Below, piece after piece: positions 2,677 to 46,282 of a DNA stretch of 64,000 bases. This DNA comes from an uncultured Candidatus Binatia bacterium. Lineage in GTDB: Bacteria; Desulfobacterota; Binatia; UBA9968; JAJDTQ01. The stretch spans positions 1,609,214-1,673,213 of the forward strand of contig OZ251459.1 in the NCBI GenBank assembly GCA_965242525.1, in the 5' to 3' direction. Every line of letters begins with the position of its first letter. Position 1 is the first letter of the stretch. Both the position numbers and the translations under genes were made by a program. A model generated the notes under the pieces. The model saw only the letters and a list, made by a program, of their open reading frames with translations. It had not been told where the DNA came from and ran no database searches.

Positions 2677-3681
2677 TCAGCGGTCCGAAGGGGGCCGCGC
2701 GCTGTCCGGGTCGGCGCTCGACCGGACCAGGGCCTCGACGCAAGAAGCGGTGTCGAGCATGGCGCACCCGAACCCGACGCTGGGTGGCGCCGGCGGCAGG
2801 GGTCCCTGCCAGTAGCGGTGCTGCGGCCAGCTTCCGTCGGAGCGTTGCCGGCCCAGGATCCGCTCCAGCGTGGCCCACAGCTCTTCGCCCTCCGGCGGGG
2901 CGCCCAGCACGTGCAGCGCGGAAAGGGCGCGGGCGGTGCGGAGGGTGTCGCCGTAGCCGCCGTCCGCGCCGCGGCGGGCGCGGATCCGGTCCGCGAGCCG
3001 GTCGCCCATGTCCCGGAACGCGGGCACGCCCCGCTGCCGGGCGCGGGCCACCGCGTCGTAGAGGTCCATGGCGTCGGGGTAGTAATGGGACGTCCCCTCG
3101 AAGTTCCCCTCGGTGACCAGGCCGGCGAGCCACGCCGCGGCCTGCGCGCCCAACTCGTTCCGGCCCTGTATGGCGAGGTAGCCCACCACGTTGGCGTTCA
3201 CCACGCTGTCCGGGACGTTGCCTTCGCCGGGCGGGGCGAGCCAGGTCCGGAACCTTCCCCTGTCGTCCCGGGCCGCGGACACGAGTCCCAAGTTCTGTCC
3301 GAACAGCACCCAGGGGTGCCACAGGATCGCCAGGGAGCAGACGCTGAGGCTGTCCAGGTCCCGCGGAAGCCGCGGCCAGTAGCGCCACGCGCCCGGATGG
3401 CTCATGGACCGGACGATGAACTCCCCGGACCGGTCCCGGACCGCCCGGGAGCGGGGGTCGTCGCAGACCTCCAGGGTGAGCGCGCCGAGAGCGGCCACGA
3501 AGGGGGGATGCTCCTCGTTGGACGGGCCTTGGAGGTCCAGGCTCGGGTAGCTCCACGAGGTCCATGCCCCGTCGCCGCGGATGGAGGCATGGAGGAAACC
3601 GAGGCCCCGGTCCACCGCGCCGCGCACCGCCTCCCGGAGGTGCGCCGGGACGGCGCCGTCGTTGTAGGATGAATGCTGCAT
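2677..3681 (-). CDS. Prenyltransferase / squalene-hopene-cyclase repeat (alpha/alpha-toroid) protein
   Basis: QW-type repeats RQRSDGSWPQH and RRGADGGYGDT are present, there are no LanC-type Cys/His motifs, and GC3 is high. The start was placed at MQHSSY because the longer ORF (to 3753) runs into the MITE cluster. Confidence 0.5.
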   Translation of the reverse strand: MQHSSYNDGAVPAHLREAVRGAVDRGLGFLHASIRGDGAWTSWSYPSLDLQGPSNEEHPPFVAALGALTLEVCDDPRSRAVRDRSGEFIVRSMSHPGAWRYWPRLPRDLDSLSVCSLAILWHPWVLFGQNLGLVSAARDDRGRFRTWLAPPGEGNVPDSVVNANVVGYLAIQGRNELGAQAAAWLAGLVTEGNFEGTSHYYPDAMDLYDAVARARQRGVPAFRDMGDRLADRIRARRGADGGYGDTLRTARALSALHVLGAPPEGEELWATLERILGRQRSDGSWPQHRYWQGPLPPAPPSVGFGCAMLDTASCVEALVRSSADPDSARPPSDR

Positions 3682-3699: not shown

Positions 3700-4080
3700 C
3701 TGTGGGGGCGCTTCAGGAATTCGTGTGGGTTGCGACACTTCCCATCCCGTCATCCCCGCGAAAGCCCCGTCTCGTCATTCCCGCGAAAGCGGGAATCCAT
3801 CCACTTTCCTCGCTCTTGTTGTAAAAACCTCTCATACAGGGCGCTATGGGGTTTGCTCGCAGGGTCTGGATTCCCGCCCCCGCTTCCGCGAGGACATGCT
3901 TTCGCGGGAATGACGGCGTGGGCGTCTGTGGAGCAATGACGGCGTGCCCCCTGTCGCTCCCCCTTTCCCTCTTGCCTTGCCCACACGAAAGCCGGAAGAG
4001 CCCCCTATGGGAAAGCGCGTCCTTCGACTTCGCTTCGCTCAGGACGAACGGGGTTCGTAGTTCAGGGTTTCCAAATCCGG
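3700..4080. repeat. MITE cluster containing family 2 (TIR CCGTCATTCCCGCGAAAGCGGGAATCCATC) and a partial family 1 copy (GCGTCCTTCGACTTCGCTTCGCTCAGGACGAACGG)
   Basis: Palindromic GTCATTCCCGCGAAAGC / GCTTTCGCGGGAATGAC arms are present, and the same units recur at about 11.2, 24.3, 25.1, 29.2, 42.3 and 45.9 kb. Confidence 0.8.
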
Positions 4081-4238: not shown

Positions 4239-4325
4239 GGTCTTCCGGCCGTGGTGGCGTCCCGCCCGGTCGGAACCCGGGCGCGCGCCTCCGGCGCCGG
4301 CGGGCATCCCGGAGCATTGACGCAC

Positions 4326-5228
4326 GTGTCCCTGTTCTACAACAAACTTTTCCGGGAGGAAGCCGTCGCCCGTCGGGCGAGCGGGGACCCACTGGACGAA
4401 CGGCTCCAGGTCACGGCCCGGCACGAGTGGATGGTGCTGGCGGGGCTCGGCTTGGCGCTCCTGCTGCTGCTCGTCTGGGGGGTCTTCGGAAGCGTGGAGC
4501 GCAGCCTTTCGGTCAAGGCCGTGCTGGTCCAGCCGGGCGAGCGCTACGCGGTGCTGTCACCCGTGTCCGGCAACGTGGTCGAACTCCTGGCCGAGGTCGG
4601 AGACACCCTCCAGGCCGGACAGGGCATCGCCCGGGTCCGTCTCCCGGAAGCCGAGCGCCAAGTCCGGATCACCCGGAGGATCCTGGACGCCGTCCGGGAC
4701 GGGACGGGAGGCGCCGCAACCGCCGAGATCCGGGCGGCGCTGCTCACCGCGGCGCGGGCCGAGGTCGAAGCCGTCGAGTCCCGCGCCGCGGAATCCATCG
4801 TGGCCCGGCGCGAGGGCCGGCTCGTGGCGCATCGCCTGGTCCCGGGCCAGCCGGTGCGCACCGGCGAGACCGTGGCCCAGGTCCGGGGCAGTTCCGATGA
4901 GCCGTGGCAGGCGCTGGCCTTCGTGTCGGCGCGGGACGCCGGGAAACTCGAAGCGGGCATGGAGGCGGAGGTGCGGGTGGCGCTGCCCGGGCGGCCGGGG
5001 ACCAGCCGGTTGGAAGCCCGGGTCCTGGAGGTGTCGCCCCGGACCGTGGCCGCCCCGCAATGGCTTGCGGACCTGGGCCTTGCCGCGCCCGCGCCGGCGC
5101 ACCTGCTGCGGCTGGTCCTGAGCGACCGGCCGCGCCTGCCGCTCGCCGACGGCGCCGGCGGACACGTGCGGATCGTGCTGGGGAACCGGTCCCCTGCGGC
5201 CCTGCTGCTGGCCAACACCGACCTCTGA
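4326..5228 (+). CDS. HlyD-family secretion adaptor of an NHLM/NHLP-type bacteriocin export system
   Basis: GTG start followed by [51 protein letters not shown] (N-terminal TM) and then a coiled-coil/beta-barrel-like region. The gene immediately precedes the C39-ABC gene. Confidence 0.75.
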
Positions 5229-5268: not shown

Positions 5269-7482
5269 TTGAACGCGACGCCGAAGCGAGGGCGCGCTGC
5301 GCCGGAGCGGCGCCGGGCGCGCACGCCCCTGATGCTGCAACTCACCGAGACCGAGTGCGGGGCGGTGTGCCTCGGCATCGTGCTTGCGCACTTCGGGCGC
5401 TGGGTATCCGTCGAGGAGTTGCGGGAAACCTGCTCGGTGGGCCGGGACGGGTGCTCCGCGGCCGACATCTTCCGCGCGGCGCAGCGGTACGGCCTGGAGG
5501 CCCAGGGATGGCGCAGGCAGCCGAAGCACCTCCGCGGCATGCCGTTGCCCATGATCATCTTCTGGGAGTTCAACCATTTCGTGGTGCTGGAAGGCTTCCG
5601 CGGGGACCGGTTCCTGATCAACGACCCGGGCAGCGGCCACCGGACGGTCAGCGCGGAAGAGTTCGACCGGGCGTTCACGGGCGTGACGCTGACGCTCCGA
5701 CCGAAGCCCGAGTTCCGTCCGGGCGGCGTCCGCCCCGGTCTCCTGCACCGGATCCTGCCGTGGCTGCGCGACGTGAAGGAGCCGCTCGCGTTCGCCATGT
5801 GCTGCGGGCTGCTGCTGACCCTGCCCTCCCTCGCCATGCCGTTCCTGGTGGGCCTGTTCGTGGACTTCGTGCTGTCCGGGCGCGAACCGTCCTGGAGCGC
5901 GGCGCTGACCGGGAGCCTCGTGGGGGCCGCGGCCCTGCTCTACCTCCTGACTTGGCTCCGGGAACGCTGCCTCCGGCTGCTCTCCGTGCGCCTCGCCATC
6001 GACCACGGCGCGCGCTTCATGGAGCGGCTGTTCCGGCTTCCCATGGGGTTCTTCACCCACCGGCTGTCCGGCGACCTGACCTCCCGGATACAGCTCCTCG
6101 ACACGGTCTCGAACGTGGCCGCGCACCACCTGGCCGGCATCTCCATCGAGATCGTCACCAGCATGGCGTTCCTTGGGCTCATGCTGGCGTACGACCCGCT
6201 GCTCTGCGCCGTGGTGGTGGGACTGGGCGCGCTCAGCGCGGTGGCCATGCGCGTCCTGGCCCGGGTCCGGGTGGACGAGAACCGCAGGCTCAGGCGCGAG
6301 CAGGGCATGCTGTACGGCATCGGCATGTTCGGGGCCGGCAAGATCGACGCCTTGCAGGCGTCCGCCGCGGAGGACGACTTCTTCTCCCGCTGGACGGGAT
6401 ACCAGGCGCGGGAACTGGCCGCCCGGCAACGGTTCACCGAGCTCGGCCACCTCAACGCGGCCCTGCCCCTGCTGTTCCTGATCGCGGGCAACGCCGCGGT
6501 GCTGGGCATCGGCGGCTGGCGGGTGATGGCGGGCGACCTGACGGTGGGCATGCTGACGGCCTTCTACATGGCGGCGGTGAACTTCCTGCAGCCCATAGGA
6601 CGGTTCATCCAGTTCGCCGACATGTTCCAGATGCTGGAGGCGGACCTGCAGCGCCTCGACGACGTGTTCGACGCGTCCGAGGACCGCACCTTCCATCCGG
6701 CGGCGCCCTCTCCCCAGGGGGAGGAGGGGGAAGTCTCGACGTTGGCCGGGCGGCTGCGTCTGAAAGGCCGGGTCGAGCTGCGCAACGTCACCTTCGGCTA
6801 CCAGAAGAACCGCGAACCCCTGATCGAGGACTTCAACCTGACCATCGAGCCGGGCCAGCGCGTGGCCGTGGTCGGCCCCAGCGGCTCCGGCAAGTCCACG
6901 CTCTCGGCGCTGGTGGCCGGCCTCCAGCAACCGTGGTCCGGGGAGATCCTCATCGACAGGCACCCGCGCAGCGCCATCCCGCGGGAGGTGCTGACCAGTT
7001 CCGTGTCCCTCGTGGACCAGCACATCTTCCTGTTCGGGGGCACCGTGCGCGAGAACCTGACCATGTGGATCCCCGAGGTGCCGGACCAGATCCTGGTGGC
7101 GGCCGCCCAGGACGCGGCCATCCACGCGGAGATCATCTCCCGGCCCCTGGGGTACGACGCGCCGGTGGACGAGGGAGGACGCAACTTCAGCGGCGGCCAG
7201 CGGCAGCGGCTGGAGATCGCCCGGGCCCTGGTCAACAACCCGTCGGTCCTGATCCTGGACGAGGCCACCTGCTCCCTCGACACCATCACCGAGGTGCGCA
7301 TCGACGACGCCCTGCGGCGCCGGGGATGCACCTGCCTCATCGTGGCCCATCGGCTGAGCACCATCCGTGACTGCGACCTGATCGTGGTCCTCGACCAAGG
7401 GCGCGAGGTGCAGCGCGGCGCCCACGAGGAGTTGATGCGGGACACGGACGGACTGTACCGCCAACTCGTGGAGTCGTCTTGA
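5269..7482 (+). CDS. Peptidase C39 domain / permease / ATPase ABC exporter (NHLM bacteriocin system)
   Basis: The N-terminus LQLTETECGAVCLGIVLAHFGRW carries the C39 catalytic Cys, followed by 6 TM segments and an NBD with GPSGSGKST, FSGGQRQRLEIARAL and ILDEAT. An alternative start is MLQL at about 5332. Confidence 0.9.
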   Translation: MNATPKRGRAAPERRRARTPLMLQLTETECGAVCLGIVLAHFGRWVSVEELRETCSVGRDGCSAADIFRAAQRYGLEAQGWRRQPKHLRGMPLPMIIFWEFNHFVVLEGFRGDRFLINDPGSGHRTVSAEEFDRAFTGVTLTLRPKPEFRPGGVRPGLLHRILPWLRDVKEPLAFAMCCGLLLTLPSLAMPFLVGLFVDFVLSGREPSWSAALTGSLVGAAALLYLLTWLRERCLRLLSVRLAIDHGARFMERLFRLPMGFFTHRLSGDLTSRIQLLDTVSNVAAHHLAGISIEIVTSMAFLGLMLAYDPLLCAVVVGLGALSAVAMRVLARVRVDENRRLRREQGMLYGIGMFGAGKIDALQASAAEDDFFSRWTGYQARELAARQRFTELGHLNAALPLLFLIAGNAAVLGIGGWRVMAGDLTVGMLTAFYMAAVNFLQPIGRFIQFADMFQMLEADLQRLDDVFDASEDRTFHPAAPSPQGEEGEVSTLAGRLRLKGRVELRNVTFGYQKNREPLIEDFNLTIEPGQRVAVVGPSGSGKSTLSALVAGLQQPWSGEILIDRHPRSAIPREVLTSSVSLVDQHIFLFGGTVRENLTMWIPEVPDQILVAAAQDAAIHAEIISRPLGYDAPVDEGGRNFSGGQRQRLEIARALVNNPSVLILDEATCSLDTITEVRIDDALRRRGCTCLIVAHRLSTIRDCDLIVVLDQGREVQRGAHEELMRDTDGLYRQLVESS

Positions 7483-10418
7483 ACGGGAAGCACCGAACCG
7501 GGGACGTGCGGAAGCCGGCGCCGGGCAGCCTCCGGGAAATCGCCCTCGCGCACGGCGAGCCGTTCATCGGAGGCGGCAACCGCCCCATCCGCCTGTCCGA
7601 CCCCGAGACCCTGTGGTACGTGGTCAAGGGCACCATGGACGTATTCACCGCCCAACATTCCGCGGACAGGGAGACGTCGGACTTCAAGCATCTCCTGCGC
7701 GCGGGCGCCGGCCGGTGGATCTTCAGCATCGCCAACGAGGAGGACGCCTCCACGTCCCTGTACATCGCCAAGGGGCTCCCCGACACCGAGCTCCGCTGCG
7801 TCCCCCGGACCGCCCTGACCGGACCCGGGACGGCCGGACTCCTGGCCGAACAGGCGGACGCCTGGATTGCCGACCTCGCCGCGGCCATCGCCCGGGAAGT
7901 GGAGCCGCGCCCGCGCCCCCAGCGCTTCCTGACCCCGGGCGAGGACGTCGAGGCCGCGGCCGAGAACGTGCTGTCCACCCGCCGCGGCGTGGTCTGGGTC
8001 TCGACCCAGGTGGGGAACGCGGCTTTCCTCGACACCGGCGAGCCTACCGGCAGCGGTCCGGGCTTCATCCCCGTCTCCGCGGGTAGCTGGATACGGCTGT
8101 TCCACCCCTGCCGACTGGCCGTCACCACGTCCGCGGCCCTCGAAGCCGACGGCCTGCTGTTCTCCGCCCTGGCCGAGTTCCATCGACTGGCGCTGTCCGC
8201 GGAGGAAATCAACCGGCGCCTGGTGCTCGTGGACATGGCCAACTTGCAGCGGGCCCACGTCCAGCGCCGGAGCCGGAGCGAAGAGCGCGCCCGGGACAGC
8301 CTGCTCGGCGTGCTGAACGAGCGGCGGTCCCCCGCGGGGGACCGCGGGACCGGCCTGTTGCGCGCCCTGGAGCAGGTGGGCCGCCACGAAGGCATCCGGT
8401 TCCGCACTCCGCCCCGCCGGCGGGGAACGGACGAGGACGCCCCCGACCTGACGGAGATCCAGCGCGTGTCGGGGGTCCGCGCGCGCAGGGTCAAGCTCGC
8501 CGTCGAAGACCATTGGTGGCGCGGCGACAGCGGCGCGATGCTGGCGTTCCGGCGCGAGTCCGGGAACCCGGTGGCGCTGGTCCCGGGCGTGTGGGGCCGT
8601 TACCAGATGATCGACCCGGAGACGGGCCGTTCGGAGCGGGTGGACGAGGGCCTGGCCCGGGACCTCGCTTCCGAGGCGTACTTCTTCTACCGCCCGCTGC
8701 CGCAGGAGGAAACGGTCCGTCCCGGCGCCCTGTTCCGCTTCGCGTTCCGCGGGCTCGGAAAAGACCTGGCGCGCTTCATCCTGGCGGGACTGCTGGTGGG
8801 CCTCATGATGCTGACGCCGCCCATCCTGCTCGGCGCCCTGGTGGACCGCGTGATCCCCAGCGGGTCCGGCTGGCAAGTCCTGGAGCTGTCCCTGTCCCTG
8901 GTCCTGCTGGCGGTCCTCACCGCGCTCCTGCATCTCCTCCAGGGAACCGCCCTGATGCGGCTGGAGGCCGCAGCCGCGGCCCGGGTGGGCGCGGCGCTCT
9001 GGGACCGGCTGCTCGGCCTGCCGCAGCGGTTCTTTCGTCGCTTCTCCTCCGGCGACCTGACCATGCGCACCATGGCCTTCCAGGGACTGCGCGACCAGGT
9101 CTCGGGGGTGGTCGGCAACGCCCTCCTGTCGGTGGTCTTCCTCCTGCCCACCTTCCTGCTGCTGTTCGTCTATGACACCGGGATCGGCTGGCTCGGCCTG
9201 GGGCTGGGACTGTCCTCCCTGGGGGTGACCGCGGCCATCGGCGTCCTCCAGCTACCCCACCAACGGCGCCTGCTCGCCATCTCGAGACGGCTTGCGGGCA
9301 GGCTGGTGCAACTGCTGAACGGCGTCAGCAAGCTGCGGTCCACCGGCTCCGAAGGCATCGGGTTCGCCTTGTGGGCGCAGGACTACCGGGAACAGAAGCA
9401 GACCGAGATGCGGCTCGGCAGGCTGAACGAGCACCTGATCGCCTTCCTGGCGGCCGCGCCCCTGCTGGCCGCGGCCGCGGTGTTCGCCGCGGCCATGCAC
9501 GACGGCCGCGCGGTCCTTCCGGTCGGGGACTTCCTCACCATCTACGCAGCGTTCATGGTGTTCTATTCCGCGGTGGCCAGGCTCGGCGCTTCGTTCTCCG
9601 CGGTGGCCGCGGTCATGCCCGCGTACGAGCAGGTGACCCCGATCCTGGAGTCGAAGCCGGAGACGGGCGCCAAGGGCGAGCCGCCGCCGGAGCTCAGCGG
9701 CGAACTCCACGTGGACCACGTGAACTTCCGCTACACGGAGGACGGTCCCCTGGTCCTGCAGGACGTCTCCATCCACGCACGGGCCGGCGAGTTCGTGGCC
9801 ATCGTGGGGGAATCCGGCGCGGGCAAGAGCACCCTGTTCCGGCTCGCCCTCGGACTCGAGGCGCCGCTGTCGGGGGCCGTTTACTACGACGGGCGCGACC
9901 TCGCGCGACTCAACAAGCGGGCGGTGCGCAGCAGGATCAGCATGGTGGTGCAGGACGTGTCGCTGCACCCCGGCACCGTGCTGGAGAACATCGTCGGAGT
10001 GTCCGGGAACCTCACCGAGGACGACGCCTGGCGGGCCGCCCGCCAGGCCAGCGTGGACGAAGACATCGCCGCCATGCCCATGCAGATGCACACCCCGACC
10101 GGAGACAAGTCCGCGACTTTCTCGGGCGGGCAGATCCAGCGGATCATGCTGGCCGCGGCGCTGGTCCGGGACCCGAGCGTCCTGTTCCTCGACGAGGCCA
10201 CCAACTGGCTCGACAACAAGAGCCAGGCGCAAGTGATGCACAACGTGGCCGAGCTTGCCGTCACCCGGTTCGTGACGGCCCACCGCCTGTCCACCATCCG
10301 CATGGCCAACCGCATCTACGTGCTGCAGGACGGCCGGGTGGTCCAGACCGGAACCTTCGACGAGCTGTTCGAGATCGACGGCCCCTTCCGCAACCTGGTG
10401 CGGCGGCAAATGGCCTGA
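7479..10418 (+). CDS. Second large ABC transporter of the NHLM tripartite system, with an N-terminal non-transporter domain
   Basis: The protein is 979 aa, and the start overlaps the upstream stop (ATGA). The N-terminal ~400 aa are not TMD-like, followed by a TMD (LLVGLMMLTPPILLGALV) and an NBD with GESGAGKST, FSGGQIQRIML and LFLDEAT. Confidence 0.85.
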   Translation: MNGKHRTGDVRKPAPGSLREIALAHGEPFIGGGNRPIRLSDPETLWYVVKGTMDVFTAQHSADRETSDFKHLLRAGAGRWIFSIANEEDASTSLYIAKGLPDTELRCVPRTALTGPGTAGLLAEQADAWIADLAAAIAREVEPRPRPQRFLTPGEDVEAAAENVLSTRRGVVWVSTQVGNAAFLDTGEPTGSGPGFIPVSAGSWIRLFHPCRLAVTTSAALEADGLLFSALAEFHRLALSAEEINRRLVLVDMANLQRAHVQRRSRSEERARDSLLGVLNERRSPAGDRGTGLLRALEQVGRHEGIRFRTPPRRRGTDEDAPDLTEIQRVSGVRARRVKLAVEDHWWRGDSGAMLAFRRESGNPVALVPGVWGRYQMIDPETGRSERVDEGLARDLASEAYFFYRPLPQEETVRPGALFRFAFRGLGKDLARFILAGLLVGLMMLTPPILLGALVDRVIPSGSGWQVLELSLSLVLLAVLTALLHLLQGTALMRLEAAAAARVGAALWDRLLGLPQRFFRRFSSGDLTMRTMAFQGLRDQVSGVVGNALLSVVFLLPTFLLLFVYDTGIGWLGLGLGLSSLGVTAAIGVLQLPHQRRLLAISRRLAGRLVQLLNGVSKLRSTGSEGIGFALWAQDYREQKQTEMRLGRLNEHLIAFLAAAPLLAAAAVFAAAMHDGRAVLPVGDFLTIYAAFMVFYSAVARLGASFSAVAAVMPAYEQVTPILESKPETGAKGEPPPELSGELHVDHVNFRYTEDGPLVLQDVSIHARAGEFVAIVGESGAGKSTLFRLALGLEAPLSGAVYYDGRDLARLNKRAVRSRISMVVQDVSLHPGTVLENIVGVSGNLTEDDAWRAARQASVDEDIAAMPMQMHTPTGDKSATFSGGQIQRIMLAAALVRDPSVLFLDEATNWLDNKSQAQVMHNVAELAVTRFVTAHRLSTIRMANRIYVLQDGRVVQTGTFDELFEIDGPFRNLVRRQMA

Positions 10419-10499: not shown

Positions 10500-10787
10500 T
10501 TACCAATCGTCGACGATGCTCCGCCCGCTCGGGTTTGGCTGCCATCCGTACACGCCGCCAGCGACCGCCTGCAGGTCGCCGTCGCCCAGCCGGCTGTCGG
10601 GGGGCAGGACCAGATGCGCAGCCTCGCCGCTCTCTTCGTGGACCTCGATGGACAGGGACGCCGGAATGGTGACGCCCAATTCCTGCTCCACCGCCCCCTT
10701 CGGGTCGCTGAGAAGCCGGGCGCGGAACTCCGCGTCCTCCATCGCCTTGCCCACGATCTTCGCCTGCATTTCCTTCGCCGTTTCCAT
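10500..10787 (-). CDS. NHLP (nitrile hydratase leader peptide) family RiPP precursor A
   Basis: Full sequence METAKEMQAKIVGKAMEDAEFRARLLSDPKGAVEQELGVTIPASLSIEVHEESGEAAHLVLPPDSRLGDGDLQAVAGG|VYGWQPNPSGRSIVDDW. It carries a classic NHLP leader, a double-Gly C39 cleavage site, a 17-aa core and a GGAGG SD. Confidence 0.9.
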   Translation of the reverse strand: METAKEMQAKIVGKAMEDAEFRARLLSDPKGAVEQELGVTIPASLSIEVHEESGEAAHLVLPPDSRLGDGDLQAVAGGVYGWQPNPSGRSIVDDW

Positions 10788-10823
10788 GGCTCGTCCCTCC
10801 TCGACAGACTGATAACTACGTGC

Positions 10824-10853
10824 AATTTACGATACCGCTTCATCCAATGTCAA
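10824..10853 (-). promoter_or_regulatory. Sigma70-like promoter for precursor A (TTGACA-N18-TAAATT on minus strand)
   Basis: The reverse complement reads TTGACATTGGATGAAGCGGTATCGTAAATT; a homologous block lies upstream of precursor D. Confidence 0.45.
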
Positions 10854-10984
10854 GGCCATATGCACGAAAACCAGTGTTATCAGGGATTTTCGTGGAACCC
10901 GGCCTTCCGTTCATCCACCTGCCCGATTCCATCGCCATCCGCTCCAAGCTCGACCGCCGAACCACCGGGCGTCCGCCTGGCCGG

Positions 10985-11090
10985 AGTCGCCGCCATGCCC
11001 ATGCAGATGCCCACCGCGACCGGAGGCAAGTCCGCGACTTTCTCGGGCGGGCAGGTCCAGCGGATCATGCTGCCGCAGCGCTGGTCCGGG
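10985..11090 (+). pseudogene. Duplicated ~105-bp fragment of the ABC gene signature region (AAMPMQMPTATGGKSATFSGGQVQRIML)
   Basis: The fragment is about 90% identical to 10070-10175 of the 7479-10418 gene, is out of context, and ends in a MITE-TIR-like CCGTCATTCC. Confidence 0.8.
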
Positions 11091-11149
11091 GCCCCGTCAT
11101 TCCTGCAAGCGTGCCCTCGTCCGCAGGCACACACATCCGGAAGGTCTGA

Positions 11150-11625
11150 ACAATGTCATACCTCCCTTGGGAATGCGCGTCCTTCGACTTCGCTACGCTA
11201 CGCTCAGGACGAACGGAATGGTTGTTCAGGGTTTCCTTGAAAACCTCTGAACAATCGAAACATCCGGGATGGATTCCCGATTCCCTCACCCTGACGCCCC
11301 TGTCCCCGTTCGTCCTGAGCGTAGCGAAGCGAAAACCTCCGTTCGTCCTGAGCGTAGCGTAGCGAAGTCGAAGGACGCGCTCATGCCCCCTGTCTGTCCC
11401 GATTGTTCAGAGGTTCCCTCGGTCATTCCCGCGAAAGCATGTCCTCGCGGAAGCGGGGGCGGGAATCTCGTCGTACAAGCCTCGATGGATGGATTCCCGC
11501 TTTCGCGGGAATGACGGAGGTGCGTGCCCGCGAACGGGGTGCGTGCCCGCGAACGGGGTGCGTGCCTGCAGGAATGACGGAGGTGGCCGCCGCGGGAACG
11601 ACGGGGTGTGCTTTTGGGCGTTTCG
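11150..11625. repeat. MITE cluster (families 1 and 2)
   Basis: Contains GCGTCCTTCGACTTCGCTACGCTACGCTCAGGACGAACGG, GAACAATCGAAACATCCGGGATGGATTCCC, GTCATTCCCGCGAAAGCATGTCCTCGCGGAAGCGGGGGCGGGAATC and a GATGGATTCCCGCTTTCGCGGGAATGACGG arm. Confidence 0.85.
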
Positions 11626-11627
11626 GG

Positions 11628-12749
11628 CTAGTCCCGGGCGAGGGAACAGATCAGGCCGGCGTATGCCTTGGCGGCGACCCCGGCGTCCGTGACCGTGAGC
11701 TTGACGTGGTTGACCCCCTTGTAAACGAGGAACACGCCCCGACGGTCGTACATCCTGTCGAGCGCGCACCACTGGAGCAGCCCCTGCGCCTTCGCCGCCA
11801 GGCACCAGCCGCGGAGCGCCAGCCGCTCCACCACCGGCCGCCAGGCGCTCCGCCCCGTGGTCAGCCAACTGTCCATGGCGTCGTCGCCCCACGACCCCGC
11901 ATGGTACAGTTCCAGGCCGATCCTGGGCAGCAGCCCCGAGTCGGCCACGTCCACCGACAGCCGGAAGCGGGGCAACACGTCCCCGAGGTCGGCCAGCAAC
12001 TCCGTGGCAGGGCGAACCGCAGCGCTCCGGCCCAACCGCTCCAGCACCCCGGCAACCTCGTCGCGCCCGATCTCCTGAACCACCAGCCGCACCGCCCGCG
12101 GCGTCCGGCTCGGCAACGCTCCGACATGGGCGACCCTGGCGTCCGGCGGCAGCGCCGCCAGCGCCCGCGCCACCCACCGCAGCGCCTCGTCCTCATCGGT
12201 CCAGCCCACCGCGCCGGCCAGCGCCGCGATCGGCAAGGGCTGCGGACGGTCATGGGGCCCGGATTCCTCCGTGCGCCGTATCTTCAAGAAGACCCCCGGA
12301 TCCGGGCGCGGGTCGGCCGGCGCCTCGGCCAGGTCGTATTCGAGCATGGTTCCGGCGATGCAAGCGTGCAACTCGGAGTCGGCCTGCCCGATCCGGGCGA
12401 GGTACCGGGACAGCGCCGCCGCCGCCGAGCCCGGACGGGCGGCTTCGCCCCTGCGGATGAAGTGCCGCGCGAGCGGGCTCCCCGACCTCACCACCACGAA
12501 CAGGTCCGCCGCCGGCGTCTCCTCGCCGAGCCGGAACTCGCAACCGAGGAACGCCGACGACCCGGCGTCCGGCAGCTCCGCGGCGCAGGCCGTCAACCGG
12601 TCCCATCCGAGGCCGTCGAGCAAGGAACGCGGTATCAGCGGGCGGAGCCCCGCGAGCACCGCCTCCGGCGCGCGGCGCGCATCGTGGGTCGATGCAGCAA
12701 ACGCGGGCTCGGCAGCCTCAACCAAGGGAAACGGGCTCGACGCCACCAT
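11628..12749 (-). CDS. Hypothetical protein (373 aa) nested between NHLP precursors; candidate RiPP maturation/immunity protein
   Basis: The ORF is long with strong GC3 bias, starts 37 bp downstream of precursor B on the same strand with a GGAGG SD, and has no recognisable motifs. The competing frames are Gly/Arg-rich. Confidence 0.5.
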   Translation of the reverse strand: MVASSPFPLVEAAEPAFAASTHDARRAPEAVLAGLRPLIPRSLLDGLGWDRLTACAAELPDAGSSAFLGCEFRLGEETPAADLFVVVRSGSPLARHFIRRGEAARPGSAAAALSRYLARIGQADSELHACIAGTMLEYDLAEAPADPRPDPGVFLKIRRTEESGPHDRPQPLPIAALAGAVGWTDEDEALRWVARALAALPPDARVAHVGALPSRTPRAVRLVVQEIGRDEVAGVLERLGRSAAVRPATELLADLGDVLPRFRLSVDVADSGLLPRIGLELYHAGSWGDDAMDSWLTTGRSAWRPVVERLALRGWCLAAKAQGLLQWCALDRMYDRRGVFLVYKGVNHVKLTVTDAGVAAKAYAGLICSLARD

Positions 12750-12785: not shown

Positions 12786-13067
12786 TCACCAGTCCAGAAC
12801 GCCCTTCCCCTGCTTGAAGTCCTCCCAGCTATATCCTCCCGCAACCGCTTGCAGGTCGCCTTCGTTCAGCTTGCTGTCGGGGGGCAGGACCAGATGCACA
12901 ACCTCGGCGCTCTGTTCGTGGACCTCGATGGACAGGGACGCCGGAATGGTGACACCCAACTCCTGCCCGATGGCTCCCTTCGGATCGCCGAGCAGCCGGG
13001 CGCGGAACTCCGCGTCCCCGGCCGCCTTGCCCACGATCTTCGCCTCCAATTCCTTTGCCGTTTCCAT
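12786..13067 (-). CDS. NHLP family RiPP precursor B
   Basis: Full sequence METAKELEAKIVGKAAGDAEFRARLLGDPKGAIGQELGVTIPASLSIEVHEQSAEVVHLVLPPDSKLNEGDLQAVAGG|YSWEDFKQGKGVLDW. A GGAAGGAG SD is present, and the ORF-track N-terminal extension was discarded. Confidence 0.85.
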   Translation of the reverse strand: METAKELEAKIVGKAAGDAEFRARLLGDPKGAIGQELGVTIPASLSIEVHEQSAEVVHLVLPPDSKLNEGDLQAVAGGYSWEDFKQGKGVLDW

Positions 13068-13119: not shown

Positions 13120-13410
13120 TCACCAGTCAAGCAATCCTCCGCCTTTCGTGGCTTCGTGGTAGTCATCCCAGGTAAGCCCGCCGGCGACCCCCTGCAGGTC
13201 TTTTTCGCTCAGCTTGCTGTCCGGGGGCAGAACGAGATGCGCGGTCGCGGCGCTATCCTGGTGGACTTGGATGGACATGGACGCCGGAATGGGGACGCCC
13301 AACTCCTGCCCGATGGCTCCCTTCGGGTCACCGAGCAGCCGGGAGCGGAACTCCGCGTCCTCGGTCGCCCTGCCCACGATCTTCCCCCGCATTTCCTTCA
13401 CGCTTTCCAT
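13120..13410 (-). CDS. NHLP family RiPP precursor C
   Basis: Full sequence MESVKEMRGKIVGRATEDAEFRSRLLGDPKGAIGQELGVPIPASMSIQVHQDSAATAHLVLPPDSKLSEKDLQGVAGG|LTWDDYHEATKGGGLLDW, with a GGAGGAGG SD. Confidence 0.85.
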   Translation of the reverse strand: MESVKEMRGKIVGRATEDAEFRSRLLGDPKGAIGQELGVPIPASMSIQVHQDSAATAHLVLPPDSKLSEKDLQGVAGGLTWDDYHEATKGGGLLDW

Positions 13411-13510: not shown

Positions 13511-13810
13511 CTACCAGTCGGCCACGACATTCCAACTGTCATCCACACGCACACCGTTTTCGTCGTACACCGCGGCGGCGCCGGCGACGGTCTCCATCTC
13601 GCTTTCGCTCAGCCTGCCGTCGGGGGGCAGGACCAGATGCGCAGCCTCGGCGCCCTCTTCGTGGACCTCGATGGACAGGGACGCCGGAATGGTGACGCCC
13701 AATTCCTGCTCCACCGCCCCCTTCGGGTCGCTGAGCAGCCGGGCGCGGAAGTCCGCGTCCTCCATGGCCTTGTCCACGATCCTCGCCTGCATTTCCTTTG
13801 CCGTTTCCAT
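13511..13810 (-). CDS. NHLP family RiPP precursor D (VAGA cleavage-site variant)
   Basis: Full sequence METAKEMQARIVDKAMEDADFRARLLSDPKGAVEQELGVTIPASLSIEVHEEGAEAAHLVLPPDGRLSESEMETVAGA|AAVYDENGVRVDDSWNVVADW. The leader is about 85% identical to precursor A. Confidence 0.85.
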   Translation of the reverse strand: METAKEMQARIVDKAMEDADFRARLLSDPKGAVEQELGVTIPASLSIEVHEEGAEAAHLVLPPDGRLSESEMETVAGAAAVYDENGVRVDDSWNVVADW

Positions 13811-13846
13811 GCCTCGTCCCTCCTCCATAGAGTGCCGAACACGTGC

Positions 13847-13876
13847 AACCTACGATACCGGCTCGCCCAATGTAAA
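13847..13876 (-). promoter_or_regulatory. Promoter-like block upstream of precursor D (TTTACA-N18-TAGGTT), homologous to precursor A promoter
   Basis: The reverse complement reads TTTACATTGGGCGAGCCGGTATCGTAGGTT. A conserved CGAAAATCCCTGATA box lies further upstream in both copies. Confidence 0.4.
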
Positions 13877-13993
13877 GTCCCCATGCATGAAAAATGAGTC
13901 TATCAGGGATTTTCGGGGAACCATGCCTTCCGTTCGTCCGCCCGCCCGATTCGGTCGCGGCCCGTTCCGGGGCGGGCGCCGGACGCTTCGGGT

Positions 13994-15358
13994 TCACCCA
14001 TGCTCCGGCCCGGAGGACGGCGGCGCCGCGCAAGCGACCCCCCGGATGACCAGGAGCTTGAGGAACTCGTCCGCCGACCCTGCCGGAGTTCCCTCGGGGA
14101 CCGTTTCCCGGAAAGCCCCCACGCGCACGGTCCCTCCCCGCAGGAGCGAGGCCAGCAACTCCATGCACCGGCCGTCGAAGGTCCAGCGGTAGCCGTGGGC
14201 CTCCAGCACCGCCTCCCCGTCGGCGTTCCGCTCCAGGGTCGCGTGCCGGGCGCCCCGGAGCCGGACCCCGTAACTCTCCCAGTCCGGAGAGTTCCAGGGG
14301 TCGATGCAGGGGCCAAGGCTCGTCCGGGGGCTCTCGGACCACGTGGAGCGCAGGTGGTCGCGGAACTTCCGTCCGACGTCCCCTTGCAGCTCCCGGAGGA
14401 CCAGCTCCCTGAGCGCCGTGTAGTGGGCGGCGCCGGTCCGGTCCGTGGGGTGGGGGAGGTCCCGGCGGAAGGTCTCGTGGCGAGCGAGCCTGCCGGAGAG
14501 CCACTCCATGAATTCCAGCCCGGTGACCGGGAGGACGCTGCAGGTGAGGTGCAGGCTGCCCGAGCCGCCCTGCCCTCCTTCGTCCTGGGTACGGGCGTCG
14601 TGCCACCACCCCCGCGGGACGTAGAGGACGTCGCCCGACCGGACCACCTCGCTCCACACCGGCTCCCGAGGCGGCTCCACGTTGGGTTCCGAGTCCCGAC
14701 CCAGGGGAAAGCGCCGCGTTTCGCCGTAGAGCCGCCAACGCTTTGCGCCGGCCGCCTGCAGCACGAACACGTCGTGGTCGTCCCAGTGCACGGAAAAGCC
14801 CCGGGTGGCCGTCCAGGAGGCGTAGAGGTTGATCCCGGTGTAGCCGCCCAGGGTCTCCTCGATTGCCTCGGCCACGGGGCGGAGAGGGGGATGGATTTCG
14901 TTGACGCCGTGCATGGCCACGCTGGCGCCCGTACGGAGGAAGGTCGCCAGCCGCGCGTCGTCGATGCAGGTTTCCTCCGGGCCTCCCCTTCTCCCCCTCC
15001 ATCCGTGGCCGAACTGCGGCGTCGTGTAGTAGTTCGGGGCAACCGTCTTGCCGTCCTGCACCAGGTGCATCCGGTTGCGCCACGCGCCCGACGACAGCAG
15101 CCCGTTGAGCGCTTCCCAGGTGCAAAGGGACGCGAAACGCGGACCCTTCGCCCGGAACAGCACCGGCCGTTTGTCCCGGTAGCGGGTGTCCAGGAACTCC
15201 TGGGTGGCGAGGGGCCGGACCAGGCTCTCGAACCCGGACTCCGGTCCGTACGGCGCCGCATCGGCCGCCAGCACCTCCACCGGGCCGGCGCCGGGGGGGA
15301 CGGTCCGTTCGGGGCGCGTTTCCGCGCCGGGGCCTCCCGGCGAGGCGGGGCCGGTCAT
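13994..15358 (-). CDS. Cupin_4 / JmjC-domain Fe(II)/2-oxoglutarate-type oxygenase (RoxA/YcfD-like)
   Basis: HxD motif in VHWDDHDVFVLQAAGAKRWRLY with a distal His in GSLHLTCSV. The start was set at MTGPASPGG, which overlaps the upstream ORF's stop (ATGA), and the Arg/Pro-rich N-terminal extension was rejected. Confidence 0.7.
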   Translation of the reverse strand: MTGPASPGGPGAETRPERTVPPGAGPVEVLAADAAPYGPESGFESLVRPLATQEFLDTRYRDKRPVLFRAKGPRFASLCTWEALNGLLSSGAWRNRMHLVQDGKTVAPNYYTTPQFGHGWRGRRGGPEETCIDDARLATFLRTGASVAMHGVNEIHPPLRPVAEAIEETLGGYTGINLYASWTATRGFSVHWDDHDVFVLQAAGAKRWRLYGETRRFPLGRDSEPNVEPPREPVWSEVVRSGDVLYVPRGWWHDARTQDEGGQGGSGSLHLTCSVLPVTGLEFMEWLSGRLARHETFRRDLPHPTDRTGAAHYTALRELVLRELQGDVGRKFRDHLRSTWSESPRTSLGPCIDPWNSPDWESYGVRLRGARHATLERNADGEAVLEAHGYRWTFDGRCMELLASLLRGGTVRVGAFRETVPEGTPAGSADEFLKLLVIRGVACAAPPSSGPEHG

Positions 15359-15872: not shown

Positions 15873-16631
15873 TCAGGAGCGGAGGCGCGCCCGGCTTCCG
15901 CGCGCGCCGTACTTGGCCACGAGGGGGAACAGGTCGTAAACGATCCTGGCCTGGGGGCAGTGGCGCCGCACCTCCGGTTCGTAGGCGCTGTTCATGTCCA
16001 TGGCCACCGCCTCGATGGCCTTGCAGCCGTCGGCGCCCAGGCTCTCGAAGAACGGCCGCACGTCTTCGCGGCTGCGCCCCTTGCCCACCCACAACACGCG
16101 CCGGGTCACCGCATCGGTAATCACCGTGGCCAGCTTCTGCACGGTTTGCAGCGCGAACTCGTCCATCACCAGCCGGGTCACCCCGCGCAAGTCCATGGGC
16201 CCCACCGCGCGCTGCAGGTACCCCCTGTCCAAGTCCCTCACCGCGTCCCACCCCAGCCGGTAGTGCTGCGCCACCTGCTTGATGGTCATCACCGTGCACA
16301 AATGCGCCACGTTGTCGGCCAGCCGTTGCGTCACCCGCGCATAGCGGGCCAGCCAGCTCAACCGTTCCAGCTTGGGACCGCACCGCGGACACGCCAGCCG
16401 CCGACGCCGCAGCACCAGGGTCGTGGGCGCGTCGAAGATGGGCAGGTCGCGCACCCGACGCCGCTCGTACCCGTGGACGGCCGCCACTTCCCGGCCGCAG
16501 CCGACGCAGACCCCGGGCCGTCCCGCCACCGGGTCGAGGTCGATCTCGACCATGCCGCGGTTGCGCCTGGCCGCCACCGCTTCGTAGCCTTCCCAGTCTC
16601 CGAGAACTTCGTCGATTCCGATCTTCGCCAA
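15873..16631 (-). mobile_element. ISL3-family transposase gene, 3'-truncated (pseudogene/remnant)
   Basis: A zf-ISL3 region (CVGCG...RDLPIF...RRRRLACPRCG) is followed by a DDE_Tnp_ISL3 start (LVMDEFAL...AVAMDMNSAYEPEVRRHCPQARIVYDLF). The coding region stops after about 250 aa against an expected ~420, and no TIRs were identified. Confidence 0.75.
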
Positions 16632-24269: not shown

Positions 24270-24640
24270 GTGGGAAAGCGCGTCCTTCGACTTCGCTACG
24301 CTACGCTCAGGACGAACGGGGTTCGTTGTTCCGAGGTTCCCTCGAACGGGAACAGGTTGCGAGAGTTTCCTTTGGAACCTCTGAACAATCGAGACATCCG
24401 GGATGGATTCTCGATTCCCTCACCCTGACGCGCCTATCCCGTTCGTCCTGAGCGTAGCGAAGTCGAAGGACGCTCTCTCCCGATTGTTCAGAGGTTCCCT
24501 TTATCTGTAGGAATGTCGAACGATCAAGACAGGGAGGGTGGATTCCCTCGCCCTGACCCTCCTATCCCGTTCGTCCTGAGCGTAGCGAAGCGAAGTCGAA
24601 GGACGCGCTCTTCCTCTGGAATTGTCCAGAGTTTCTGTTA
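24270..24640. repeat. MITE family 1 copies (TIR GGAACCTCTGAACAATCG ... CGATTGTTCAGAGGTTCC)
   Basis: Read directly; the copies include the GCGTCCTTCGACTTCGCTACGCTCAGGACGAACGG core. Confidence 0.85.
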
Positions 24641-24994: not shown

Positions 24995-25600
24995 CTTCCC
25001 GCCTTTCCCGCGCTTTCGCCCGAACGGACAGACGGCCGACACGGTTGAGGCGGTCCATGTAGAGGCCCCATCCTCACAGCCTCGCCGTCATTCCCCACAG
25101 ACGCCCACCCCTCGTCATTTCGGCAAGCGCTTACCCCGTCATTCCCGCGAAAGCGGGAATCCATCCGGTTTCGTCGCTCTCGTTGTACAAACCTCTCCAG
25201 GTCGGATTACCCTTCTCGATCCACTCGATCTTCCTTGCCCGCTTCCATTTCCTGACCGCCTTTCTCTCCGGGTAGCGCTTTCCATGGGTTCAGGAACCTC
25301 GTATCCAACCAACAGGTGCACAGATGGATGGATTCCCGCTTTCGCGGGAATGACGGCATGGGTTTTCACAGGAGGAACCTCTGAACAATCGAGACATCCG
25401 GGATGGATTCCTTCACCCTGACCCCTATATCCGTTCGTCCTGAGCGTAGCGAAGCGGAGTCGAAGGACGCGCTCATGCCCTCTATCCCGATTGTTCAGAG
25501 GCTCCTCCCGTCATTCCCGCGAAAGCATGTCCTCGCGGAAGCGGGGACGGGAATCCATCTGCCTTCGATCTTTGCCACGGGATCGGTTCCCGTCGCTTAC
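24995..25600. repeat. MITE cluster: a family 2 element (~25133-25358), a family 1 element (~25373-25510) and a TIR fragment
   Basis: The family-2 copy here is about 95% identical to the copy at about 29226-29460. Confidence 0.85.
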
Positions 25601-28600
25601 CGCGGCGCCGCCAGCAGCATGGCGTCCAGCAGGCGCTTCTCTTCGCTCACCGGAGGGTACAGAGCGGACAGGGCGTTGGCAAGGCGCAGGAAGTCGGGGC
25701 CGCGCTCGTGTTCCGCCTTCAGCAGGTTGCGCAGGGCCTGGCTGCGGCCCGACGCCTGCAAGAGCATGGCCGCGTGGACCCGGTCCAGCGTGGTGGCGTC
25801 CGGGGCCTGCATCTCCGCGTCGTCCGCGATGAGGACCTTCCCACCGCGGCTTCGGGTTCGCTTCTTCTTGGGGGCGGCCTCCATTTCGGGGAAAAGCACC
25901 TGCTGCACGGTGACCCTCGGGTCGCGCTCCAACCATTCCGCGGCCGTGTCTGCGCCGTCTTCGCCGAAAAGCTGTTTCCCTCGTTCCGTGGCGTTTATCA
26001 GCCGCACCACGCCCTTGTCCGTCTCGATGATCCGCCCCTCCCACTTGGACAGTTCGATGCCCAGAGGCTGGGCCAAGCGGCGCGCCACGTCGAAGACGAG
26101 ACTGTAACCCCTAGGCTTGTCGCGGGGCGCGTCGTCCGCCTCCTCGTGGTCATCGTCCTCCGCAACGTTGTCATCGTCTTCGGAGGCGTCGTCTGCGCCA
26201 GTGCTTTGCAGGGTCCAGAGGAACAGGGCGGTCAGGCGGGTGTCCTCTTCCAGCGCCCCGGCCATGCCGTTGCGCGCCTTCGCCTCCGCGGCCCCGAGGA
26301 CGTTTTCGAGGGCGGTGCGCCCGACCACTTCCCACACCCGTTCCAGGTACTCCGGCAGGCCCACCTCACGCCCCTCCGCGGTCTCCACCTGCCGGTAGCG
26401 GCTGTATATCTCCAGGGCCGGTCCGATGCAGGCAAAGACCAGGTCCGCGCCCCGGACCCCTTCGCCTTGCAACCGTTCCATCCATTCGCCCACGCGGATG
26501 GGCAGTTCGCGCAGCACGTCCGCCCAATCGCCCACCGGCGCGTCGTCGGGGCGGGGACGGCAGACCAGGTGGACGCTGGTGGCCAGGGACGCGGTGTCAC
26601 GCGCATTGAGACGAGAACCCATCTCCGTTGCCACCGGCCACGAGCCGGTGATGGTCCAGCCGCCGCTGATCATCCCGGACAGCAGCGCTTCCCAGCCCTC
26701 GGTGGTCTTGTGGGCGAAGACGACCGATCCGATACCGTCCTGGCGCAGGATGCGCCGCCCTTCGGCAAAAGCCCGAACCATTCCCGATTCGTAGGTCCTT
26801 GCCGTCTTGGTCGAACTGCTGAGCCGATGCGGTCGGTCAACGACGATCTCTTCTTCCTTCGGGGTCAGGTCATGTGAATCGATGGAGTGGCAAAGAGCCA
26901 TCATCTGCTCTGGCAAGGCGCGCTTGAGCCATACGAAGAAGAAATCGGACAAGTGTGCATAGGGGACAGCGTCGTAGTAGGGCGGGTCGGTGAACCAGAC
27001 ACTGGCGGCGGCGTCGGGCAAAGGATAAGCCTTGGCGTCTGCGGGTTGCACTTGGCCAAGGTTGGATTCGGGCCATGAGTCAATAACATTGGCAATCCAG
27101 TCCAGCGCTCCGTCATAACCACCGGTGGATTCCGAAAAGGGATTGCTCTCGCTGTAGTCCCAGACCAGGGGGAGAGCCTGTCGAGAATAGACACCCTCAT
27201 GCTTCTCGCCTGATGTATGCCATCGGCATAGCGAGCATCCTGCATTGGCGGTTCGTGTCAACGCCAGCGCCAGAGGTTGTTTCGCCATGTCGTCGATCGT
27301 TGGGAACCTCTGAACGATCGGGACAGGGGGCGTGAGCGCGTCCTTCGACTTCGCTTCGCTACGCTCAGGACGAACGGAGGACTCCACCTCGCTACGCTCA
27401 GGACGAACGGGAGGCTCCGCTTTGCTACGCTCAGGATAAACGGGGATGGGACGGTCAGGGTGCGGGAATCCATCCTGGATGTCTCGATTGTTCGGGAGTT
27501 TCGTTGATGATTTCGTCAATTCCACCAGCGCCGCCTTCTGCCGCGCGGTGAACAGATCGCCCCATGTCGTCATTCCGTAGATTGGCACGCTGATGCGTCG
27601 AATCTCGTTCAGCGAAATCGGCTCGTCCGGCACAGGACACAACCCTTGCCTCCCGCCCCGCTCCCATTCGTCGAGAATCCCCGCCAGCCGTGCCTGCGCT
27701 TCATACACCGCCGCGTAATCGGCGTCCGTCGGCATCCGATAGTGCCGGCCCGGCTCGTTCTCCTTCAGCGTCACCACCGCGGTCATGCACGCGCCGCCCA
27801 TGCGTCTGCCTGCTTCGTCGAAGATCACGTCCGCGCCGCCGCGCTGCTCGGCAAGTTGCGCCCGCACCCGCTCCGGCGGTAGTACGGCGCCGCAACACAG
27901 GCAGGTCGCCTTGGCCCGCGTCACCGTGCCCGCACGCACGTCCTTGTCGGTCTCCGGCTCGAAAATCTCCAACTCCACACGCGGCGGCTCCTTGGCCGGC
28001 TGCACGACCTTATGGAACCTCTGAACAATCGGGACAGGAGGCATGAGCGCGTCCTTCGTCTCCGCTTCGCTACGCTCAGGACGAACGGGGATAGGCGTGT
28101 CAGCGTGAGGGAATCCATCCCGGATCTCTCGATTGTTCAGATGTTTCTTGTACCGGAGCGCCTGACGGCCCCGGACCTTCTTCCGCTTGCCGCCCTCCCT
28201 CTTGAACACAGCTTTCTTCGCCAACCACAGCGACCGCAGCAGCGGGACTTCCGCCCCGCAGTTCGGGGCCTCGCAGCGCACCGTGCGCGCCCACAGGTAG
28301 GCGATGGGCGTGCTCCCGTCCAGGTCCACCGGATACAGATCGGCCAACTCCCGTTCCGCGGCCTGCCTGACCTCGCCGCCGACCTTGCGCAACTCATCGG
28401 CCAGCCCCGAACCGTGGCGCGGGATGTCTTCCAGCATCACCTTGAGGATCAGGCAGGCCACCGGGTTCAGGTCGCTGGCGAACGCCTCGCAGCCCACCCG
28501 CAGGGCTTCCAACGGAATCGAGCCGCCGCCCGCGAACGGGTCCACCACTAGGGGCGGCTCCGCGCCGTGGGCCGCCCTCACCAGCGCCCGGGCCGTTTCG

Positions 28601-29037: not shown

Positions 29038-29039
29038 TT

Positions 29040-29660
29040 CGCTTCGCTACGCTCAGGACGAACGGGGATAAGGGGTCGGGGTGAGGGAATCCATCCTGGA
29101 TGTCTCGGTTGTTCAGAGGTTCCATAAATCGGCTCTTCCGGCTTTCGTGTGGGTAAGGTAGAAGGGAAAGGGGAGCGAAAAGGATCACACGGTCATTGCT
29201 CCGCGGACGCCCACTCCCGTCATTCCCGCGCACACCCACTTCCGTCATTCCCGCGAAAGCATGTCCTCGCGGAAGCGGGGGCGGGAATCCATCCGGTTTC
29301 GTCGCTCTCGTTGTACAAACCTCTCCAGGTCGGATTACCCTTCTCGATCCACTCGATCTTCCTTGCCCTATTCCATTTCCTGACCGCCTTTCTCTCCGGG
29401 TAGCGTTTTCCGTGGGTTCAGGGACCTCGTATCCAACCAACCGGTGCACAGATGGATGGATTCCCGCTTTCGCGGGAATGACGGAGATGAGGCTTTCGCG
29501 GGAATGACGGCATGGGCTTTCACAGGAGGAACATCTGAACAATCGAGACATCCGGGATGGATTCCTTCACACTGACCCCTATATCCGTTCGTCCTGAGCG
29601 TAGCGAAGCGAAGTCGAAGGACGCGCTCATGCCTCCTGTCCCGATTTTTCAGAGGTTCCA
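29040..29660. repeat. MITE cluster (family 1 at ~29040-29140 and ~29530-29660; family 2 at ~29226-29520)
   Basis: Read directly. Confidence 0.85.
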
Positions 29661-46147: not shown

Positions 46148-46282
46148 CATGGCGAACGGAGACGGTTCTTCCGAGTTTCCTCCACCGGGAAGCGACCCGA
46201 GGGCGGGCGGCTCGTCCGCGGCGCGGCTCCCTGTCGAGGGGAGCCACTGTCTCCGCGGTCGCAAACCTTCGAGGGATGATCC

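Follow-up and report, generated by a model that had tools for sequence, protein, structure and literature searches.

What is the function of an unannotated gene that lies inside an array of NHLP-type peptide precursor genes? This question is raised by ORF373, an open reading frame (ORF) at positions 11628-12749 on the minus strand of a 64,000-nucleotide stretch of DNA (the whole of it hereafter called the window) from an uncultured Candidatus Binatia bacterium (contig OZ251459.1). A first-pass annotation of this DNA described the frame as an orphan and proposed that it encodes a maturation partner of a nearby oxygenase, a leader-binding scaffold, or an immunity protein. Here we report that ORF373 is a genuine gene, that its predicted product almost certainly adopts the ABBA (PT-barrel) prenyltransferase fold, and that this candidate enzyme probably prenylates tryptophan residues of the peptides encoded next to it.

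ORF373 is a genuine gene of a large, unnamed family

ORF373 comprises 373 codons, with an ATG at 12749 and a TAG stop codon at 11628-11630, and it is located between the precursor genes B and A on the same strand, as had been annotated. Its ATG is 36 nt past the stop codon of precursor B (the earlier count was 37 bp), and a GGAGG sequence 4 nt upstream of the ATG agrees with the Shine-Dalgarno site proposed before. Because two other frames of this 72% GC stretch hold overlapping ORFs of 563 and 256 aa, the length of ORF373 alone is no proof of a gene. It is the sole frame with a coding signature, the GC contents at the first, second and third codon positions being 0.74, 0.55 and 0.90, even over the whole length, which bears out the third-position bias noted in the first pass. 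More than 180 homologs were found at 40-100% identity, and a profile search of 1.84 billion representatives returned 3,437 family clusters (defined at 50% identity) at E<=1e-3 and 2,357 at E<=1e-10. The description as an orphan is thus refuted, and the lack of conservation in relatives that would have marked a spurious ORF was not observed. In comparisons with four orthologs (about 65-85% identity), differences were enriched about 1.5-fold at third codon positions, and of the codons that differed 37-43% were synonymous. Together, the coding signature, the homologs and the third-position bias therefore identify ORF373 as a real gene under selection.

The earlier statement that the protein carries no recognisable motif holds at the sequence level: Pfam and NCBIfam scans gave no match, a set of 40 aligned relatives gave nothing relevant in Pfam at E<=10, Trp_DMAT and PTase_Orf2 included, and tblastn of plasmids was likewise without a match. 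The family is hypothetical in every database, none of which gives it a name, and no description of it or of its motif-specific clades was found in the literature searched.

Orthologs at 74-83% identity come from metagenome-assembled genomes that bear the labels Alphaproteobacteria, Gammaproteobacteria and Binatia (among loci L004-L019 and L047 of our collection), those at 66-69% identity in Vicinamibacterales and Spirochaetia genomes, and remoter relatives in SAR202, Nitrospinota, Tectomicrobia and Latescibacteria. This spread over distant taxa suggests horizontal transfer inside one habitat; several of the bin names look like those of marine-sponge microbiome studies.

Predicted fold and candidate active site

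The structure prediction advised in the first pass was run with AlphaFold2 on a 40-sequence alignment and gave a confident model (predicted local distance difference test score 85.8; predicted template modelling score 0.86), in which five alpha-alpha-beta-beta repeats form the ten-stranded antiparallel barrel characteristic of ABBA enzymes. In a Foldseek search of this model against the PDB, the first 17 matches were all ABBA aromatic prenyltransferases, and the ABBA enzymes matched included EpzP, DMATS1, NphB, KgpF, CloQ, AmbP3, NotF, FamD1, CdpNPT, FgaPT2 and CymD, with indole prenyltransferases as the best structural matches. Identities to these proteins were only 6-14%, and profile and hhalign comparisons were negative (see below); therefore, the assignment of the modelled protein to the ABBA fold is strong, while membership in a known sequence family is not supported.

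To the barrel strands we mapped residues conserved in at least 94% of 88 family members from related loci, down to about 35% identity. These are E71 (strand 1), D82 (strand 2), E137 and D139 (strand 3), F154 (strand 4), R221 (strand 6), D267 (strand 7), R276 and E280 (strand 8), H348 and K350 (strand 9), and K361 and Y363 (strand 10); in the 40-sequence set, R73 of strand 1 hardly varies. Charged or polar residues conserved in the family occur on nine of the ten strands, in the phase pointing away from the side of hydrophobic packing; on strand 1, for example, L68, C70, F72 and L74 alternate with G69, E71 and R73. Since the conserved residues alternate with hydrophobic positions, they are expected on the face opposite to the helix-packing side. 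R73, R221, R276, H348, K350, K361, Y363 and E71 share this non-hydrophobic phase, and by strand periodicity the set resembles a polar barrel lumen with the Arg, Lys, His and Tyr residues that would bind a diphosphate. The glutamate of strand 1 would correspond in position to the acceptor-contacting residue of both DMATS and cyanobactin enzymes. Every invariant residue of the family is retained by ORF373.

Tryptophan-bearing NHLP precursors are the consistent partners of the family

The window encodes four NHLP precursors on the minus strand, all of which pass the curated TIGR03793 cut-off of 50.9 bits: precursor B (12786-13067; 74 bits; core YSWEDFKQGKGVLDW), which directly precedes ORF373, precursor B2 (13120-13410; 65.6 bits; core LTWDDYHEATKGGGLLDW), precursor C (13511-13810; 73.7 bits; core ending ...AAVYDENGVRVDDSWNVVADW), and precursor A (10500-10787; precursor hidden Markov model E 5e-38; core VYGWQPNPSGRSIVDDW). 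Each has a double-glycine type site (AGG or AGA) followed by a core of 15-21 residues, and each core contains exactly two Trp residues, one inside the core and one at its very end following Asp, so that all four end in DW.

The co-occurrence advised in the first pass was assessed within 10 kb of the family gene in 60 related loci, 57 from a scan of one genome per species and three from exact look-ups. At least one NHLP precursor was found in 54 of the 60 loci, 201 precursors in all; a C39 ABC exporter was present in 29 loci. The oxygenase of the window, a JmjC/Cupin_4 protein, has a homolog in just 19 loci, mainly next to W-(D/E)-D core motifs (a reading of the counts without statistics). Trp is present in 189 of the 196 cores that could be delimited (96%), 102 cores (52%) terminate in Trp, and this residue makes up 8.7% of core residues versus 0.06% of leader residues. 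The consistent partner of the family is therefore a Trp-bearing NHLP precursor and not the oxygenase. The proposal of a maturation partner thus survives in part, ORF373 being a candidate enzyme for maturing the peptides of the array, and the tie to the oxygenase does not; the hypothesis of a dedicated partner of the JmjC protein was rejected on these counts.

The enzyme gene typically starts tens of bases after the stop codon of a same-strand precursor. When the enzymes were clustered at about 55% identity and compared with the core of the same-strand precursor directly upstream, enzyme groups matched core motifs. The group of ORF373 includes 24 sequences from other loci, 20 of them with a precursor directly upstream, and 17 of these 20 precursors end in W, mostly as DW or NW. 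A second group (35 sequences) lies behind cores with internal FWDD(F/W/Y) and related motifs, a third (16) behind NAWNSLNQNS cores, and a fourth (5) behind SWARA, FWG or GW cores. Two more distant family members adjoin NHLP genes as well, one of them with the three-residue core FWE and the other, beside a YcaO gene, with a core that lacks Trp.

Several related loci have unusual contents. L002 holds about 11 NHLP precursors, with cores ending in or near ...CW, three paralogs of the enzyme family, two cyclase-like and two UCP032817-like proteins, and no JmjC gene. The NHLP precursors at L053 10827-11825 and L056 10869-11975 run about 150 residues past a Trp-containing core (…CFRPDALVRLADGRELPAGEI…), and Pfam recognises only their leader part.

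A terpene cyclase as cluster and fusion partner

A gene at 2677-3681 on the minus strand encodes a 334-aa protein (358 aa from an alternative start at 3753), which we identify from profile and fold matches as an MstE-like single-domain class II terpene cyclase. It has about 84 homologs, some with an SQHop_cyclase_C domain; the protein itself has no significant Pfam match (best E 0.1-0.2) and no NCBIfam name. Profile comparisons matched it to squalene-hopene cyclase (E 1.6e-27), the single-domain cyclases 8paj and 8pak (1e-16), the prenylcyclase 6ij1, and MstE, and its best structural match is drimenol synthase, itself a HAD-cyclase fusion. The invariant D108-L-D110-S fits the class II acid motif DxD(D/T/S). 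This neighbour, compared as a 365-aa protein (U365), was also considered as a paralog of ORF373, which was ruled out by hhalign against the family; an additional copy of either the cyclase or the ORF373 enzyme was not found within the window.

Homologs of the cyclase occur in 23 of the 60 loci. Moreover, two metagenomic proteins fuse a cyclase, in first position, to an ORF373-type enzyme: in P0361 (660 aa), residues 3-301 match the cyclase profile (E 1e-98, with PPDLDDT) and residues 323-656 that of ORF373 (E 7e-91), and P0167, 41% identical to P0361, is a contig-truncated version of the same fusion. A barrel transferase is thus paired with an MstE-like class II cyclase in the same cluster, across loci and in single proteins. 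Class II cyclases require a polyisoprenoid chain. The recurrent pairing and the fusions therefore provide independent support for the view that the barrel enzyme handles prenyl groups, with a chain that is probably longer than C5.

Other features of the cluster and the window

The minus-strand genes are arranged in the order of an ISL3 fragment, the JmjC oxygenase, precursors C, B2 and B, ORF373, a repeat-rich spacer of 840 nt, and precursor A. Converging on this array from the plus strand are the genes of an HlyD-type adaptor of NHLP export (4251-5228, with the frame open from 4101; PF13437, partial match to TIGR03794), a C39-peptidase ABC exporter (5269-7482; Peptidase_C39, TIGR03796 at 894.7 bits, cut-off 853.3), and a second NHLP export ABC subunit (7479-10418; TIGR03797 at 748.2 bits, cut-off 709.4). 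Cyanobactin proteases (PatA/PatG context) were not found in the window, where processing is represented by the NHLP C39-ABC exporter, and the scan of window proteins revealed no LanM.

The JmjC_2/Cupin_4 oxygenase (13994-15358, minus strand; PF08007, E 1e-24) likely starts at the methionine of MTGPAS..., and the 592-aa ORF starting with TTG is probably over-extended; its orthologs have about 466 aa. Next to the JmjC gene, at the place where a cyclase gene overlaps the JmjC start in related loci, lies a truncated ISL3 transposase (15873-16631, minus strand; PF01610, PF13542 and PF14690), whose match to the DDE model stops after the first 91 of its 240 positions and which is a probable cluster edge or point of disruption. 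In L012, the closest full cluster (83% identity), B- and B2-type precursors are flanked by enzymes of both the C-terminal-motif and the internal-motif groups, together with JmjC and cyclase genes. Since the C-terminal type is the only one of these enzymes in the window, where an insertion sequence fragment lies beside JmjC, the window cluster may be a trimmed version of a fuller one such as L012.

The spacer between ORF373 and precursor A (10788-11627) contains dispersed repeats of a short, intergenic family resembling repetitive extragenic palindromes or miniature inverted-repeat transposable elements, with a perfect 43-nt inverted repeat (11175-11217 / 11338-11380). Copies recur in the window at 11160-11620, ~3770-4070, 24270-24610, 25130-25560, 27300-27490, 28010-28150, 29010-29660, 42275-42445, 45820-46150, 51575-51630, 58600-58670 and 62100-62240. 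Over 109 nt, the spacer segment 10987-11094 repeats 3' sequence of the ABC exporter gene (10066-10174) at 94% identity, a sign of past rearrangement. The upstream regions of precursors A (10790-10929) and C (13813-13952) are 80% identical. A sigma-70-like site at 10853-10824 on the minus strand precedes precursor A, and thus the precursors may have promoters of their own.

At the far end of the window, the region ~55500-64000 encodes a type I restriction-modification R subunit, a macro-domain protein and an N6 DNA methylase. Its GC content is 0.49-0.58 versus ~0.70 elsewhere, and it is probably an acquired island.

Discussion

We consider it likely that ORF373 is a peptide Trp prenyltransferase of the neighbouring NHLP precursors, while the chances that it is specific for the C-terminal Trp are about even. 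The reality of the gene, its fold, the link of the family to NHLP precursors, the Trp signature, the cyclase fold and the fusions are results of the analysis; catalysis, the length of the donor chain, the choice of Trp and the sequence of the modifications are inferred from them. The presence of Trp in nearly all cores and the match of enzyme clades to core motifs are a correlation only, which points to the core Trp as the putative acceptor.

A number of observations weigh against this interpretation. Similarity to characterised prenyltransferases is undetectable by sequence in Pfam, NCBIfam, the PDB profile comparison and hhalign: the family profile gave a single chance match among PDB sequences (PARP14, E 0.75), and hhalign against NphB, whose sequence was verified as 1zb6, returned a probability of 0.1%. 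The orientation of the conserved residues toward the lumen rests on strand periodicity only. The cyanobactin protein PatF is an inactive ABBA homolog. Seven of the 196 cores have no Trp, and one distant family member stands by a YcaO gene and a YcaO-type precursor with the Trp-free core KMGMYCIT. No cyclase is shown within 10 kb in 37 of the 60 loci, the fusion genes are on short contigs that show no precursor, and among the likely genes of the window no prenyl diphosphate synthase was found.

The explanation that survives best beside Trp prenylation, with a small but appreciable probability, is that a catalytic ABBA enzyme acts on the same precursors by another chemistry, with Tyr, Asp/Asn or the C-terminal carboxylate as the acceptor, or with a non-isoprenoid diphosphate as the donor. 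The set of conserved residues in the lumen phase is unusually acidic (E71, D82, E137, D139, D267 and E280), the cores are rich in D and N, the penultimate residue being D or N, and a few partner cores are without Trp. The residues that cyanobactin ABBA enzymes modify also include Tyr, Ser, Thr, His and Arg (PMC12715784). Against such a chemistry, no residue other than Trp is shared by 96% of the cores, which are otherwise unrelated, and the leaders lack it, indole prenyltransferases are the closest structural matches, and a terpene cyclase is both the cluster partner and the fusion partner of the enzyme.

The scaffold proposed in the first pass, here taken as a protein or chaperone that binds peptides or leaders and has retained the barrel fold without catalysis, is improbable. 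PatF offers a precedent for an inactive ABBA homolog in clusters for peptides that are ribosomally synthesised and then modified post-translationally (RiPPs). The conserved, helix-borne W49, W295 and W303 could form a leader-docking surface comparable to W336/F340 of MppC (PMC12715784). However, the charged, His and Tyr residues that are close to invariant in 88 sequences, and that are spread over nine of the ten strands, fit an active site better than a degenerate one, on a fold that is that of catalytic prenyltransferases, and the window protein has kept all of the invariant ones.

Less probable still is a meroterpenoid-type prenyltransferase working with the cyclase on a non-peptide aromatic small molecule, for which the adjacency of precursors would be incidental. 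MstE-type cyclases belong to meroterpenoid pathways, as their PDB names indicate. A HAD-family hydrolase gene directly follows each fusion gene (L061 1371-2066 and L064 4773-5453). Since no precursor is visible on these contigs and the HAD gene follows, the fusion branch could act on small molecules. For the family as a whole, NHLP precursors in 54 loci, enzyme genes placed tens of bases behind same-strand precursor stops, and subclades that track core motifs all speak against incidental adjacency, and in the window the transporter genes stand between the cyclase and ORF373. An immunity protein or a spurious ORF is hardly credible, since long chance ORFs, common as they are at this GC content, do not show coding-type third positions, ~3,400 clusters of relatives and a third-position substitution bias, and since the product is a confidently predicted globular enzyme with no membrane or signal segment visible in its sequence.

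If ORF373 is a Trp prenyltransferase, the pathway may be envisaged as follows. The precursors would be synthesised with their NHLP leaders and bound by ORF373 in the cytoplasm, in a leader-dependent manner. Inside the barrel, the enzyme would alkylate a Trp indole with an allylic cation derived from a prenyl diphosphate, which is the general ABBA mechanism as given in PMC13290415. The probable target in the clade of the window would be the invariant Trp of the ...(D/N)W end. The MstE-like cyclase may then protonate the terminal alkene and cyclise the terpene chain, the JmjC enzyme may add a hydroxyl group to peptide or terpene, and the C39-peptidase ABC exporter would cut after the Gly-Gly motif and export the product.

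Among known systems, the nearest in logic is NctPC (Hubrich et al., Chem 2024). According to PMC13290415, its prenyltransferase domain has the barrel fold, shows little similarity to cyanobactin enzymes and is joined to an MstE-like cyclase; NctPC adds a geranylgeranyl group to a RiPP Trp and then cyclises the chain. By that description, the two systems share a barrel-fold transferase and an MstE-like cyclase in a RiPP context. They differ in that NctPC is a single protein with the transferase first, whereas the window has separate genes ~8 kb apart and the fused relatives of ORF373 are cyclase-first, and in that the four precursors of the window all end in DW and are accompanied by a JmjC oxygenase. 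By this analogy, the window system looks like a split form of the NctPC logic, a relative in kind. Barrel-fold prenylation of a RiPP Trp with a terpene cyclase has thus been known since 2024, and what is new here is its candidate split, multi-precursor, C-terminal-Trp form in an unannotated family.

The substrate of PalQ from Paenibacillus alvei is a precursor that has an NHLP leader and a conserved C-terminal Trp; the enzyme modifies the terminal Trp specifically, and its activity is enhanced by the leader (PMC10853753). A C-terminal Trp is shared by the precursors of the window and by those directly upstream of 17 of the 20 clade sequences that have one. However, PalQ has an all-helical, ComQ-like isoprenoid-synthase fold, no match to which was found for the ORF373 model, and ORF373 is predicted to be a beta-barrel; prenylation of a C-terminal Trp would therefore be a convergent solution. 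MppC, a barrel-fold, leader-dependent enzyme, geranylates one specific Trp of a lanthipeptide, and nine MppC-like proteins were reported adjoining NHLP genes (PMC12715784). It resembles the proposed role of ORF373 in these respects, as compared by description only, and differs in its substrate, a LanM-cyclised Nif11-leader peptide. The cyanobactin F-family enzymes (PagF, KgpF and PatF) are leader-independent and act on macrocycles; ORF373 lacks their NCBIfam and Pfam matches and scores lower against their structures than against DMATS-type enzymes. The latter (MpnD, FgaPT2, CymD and 6-DMATS) share 8-14% identity with ORF373, which has no Trp_DMAT match at E=10, and their substrates are free Trp, diketopiperazines or small molecules. 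Likewise, MstE cyclises a meroterpenoid, whereas the substrate of the window cyclase would be a prenylated peptide.

We tentatively extend these results to a broader scenario, which is possible and on balance doubtful. The large unannotated barrel family would define a RiPP class of its own, independent of NctPC and MppC, comprising NHLP-leader peptides lipidated on Trp by paralogs that are each keyed to their own Trp motif (C-terminal (D/N)W, internal FWDD, NAWNSLNQNS or FWG); in full clusters, two-Trp peptides such as those of the window would be doubly prenylated and then cyclised and oxidised, and the systems would be exchanged horizontally among distant uncultured bacteria. If the reading of ORF373 as a Trp prenyltransferase is correct, ~3,400 sequence clusters would gain a testable function, the site-specific lipidation of peptides on tryptophan, and many unannotated clusters of uncultured bacteria would be flagged as producers of terpenylated peptides. 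ORF373 would then match PalQ, on a barrel fold, as an enzyme for C-terminal Trp, a kind of tool that is sought after for the lipidation of peptides and proteins, and the family would offer natural pairs of enzyme clade and short recognition motif for engineering.
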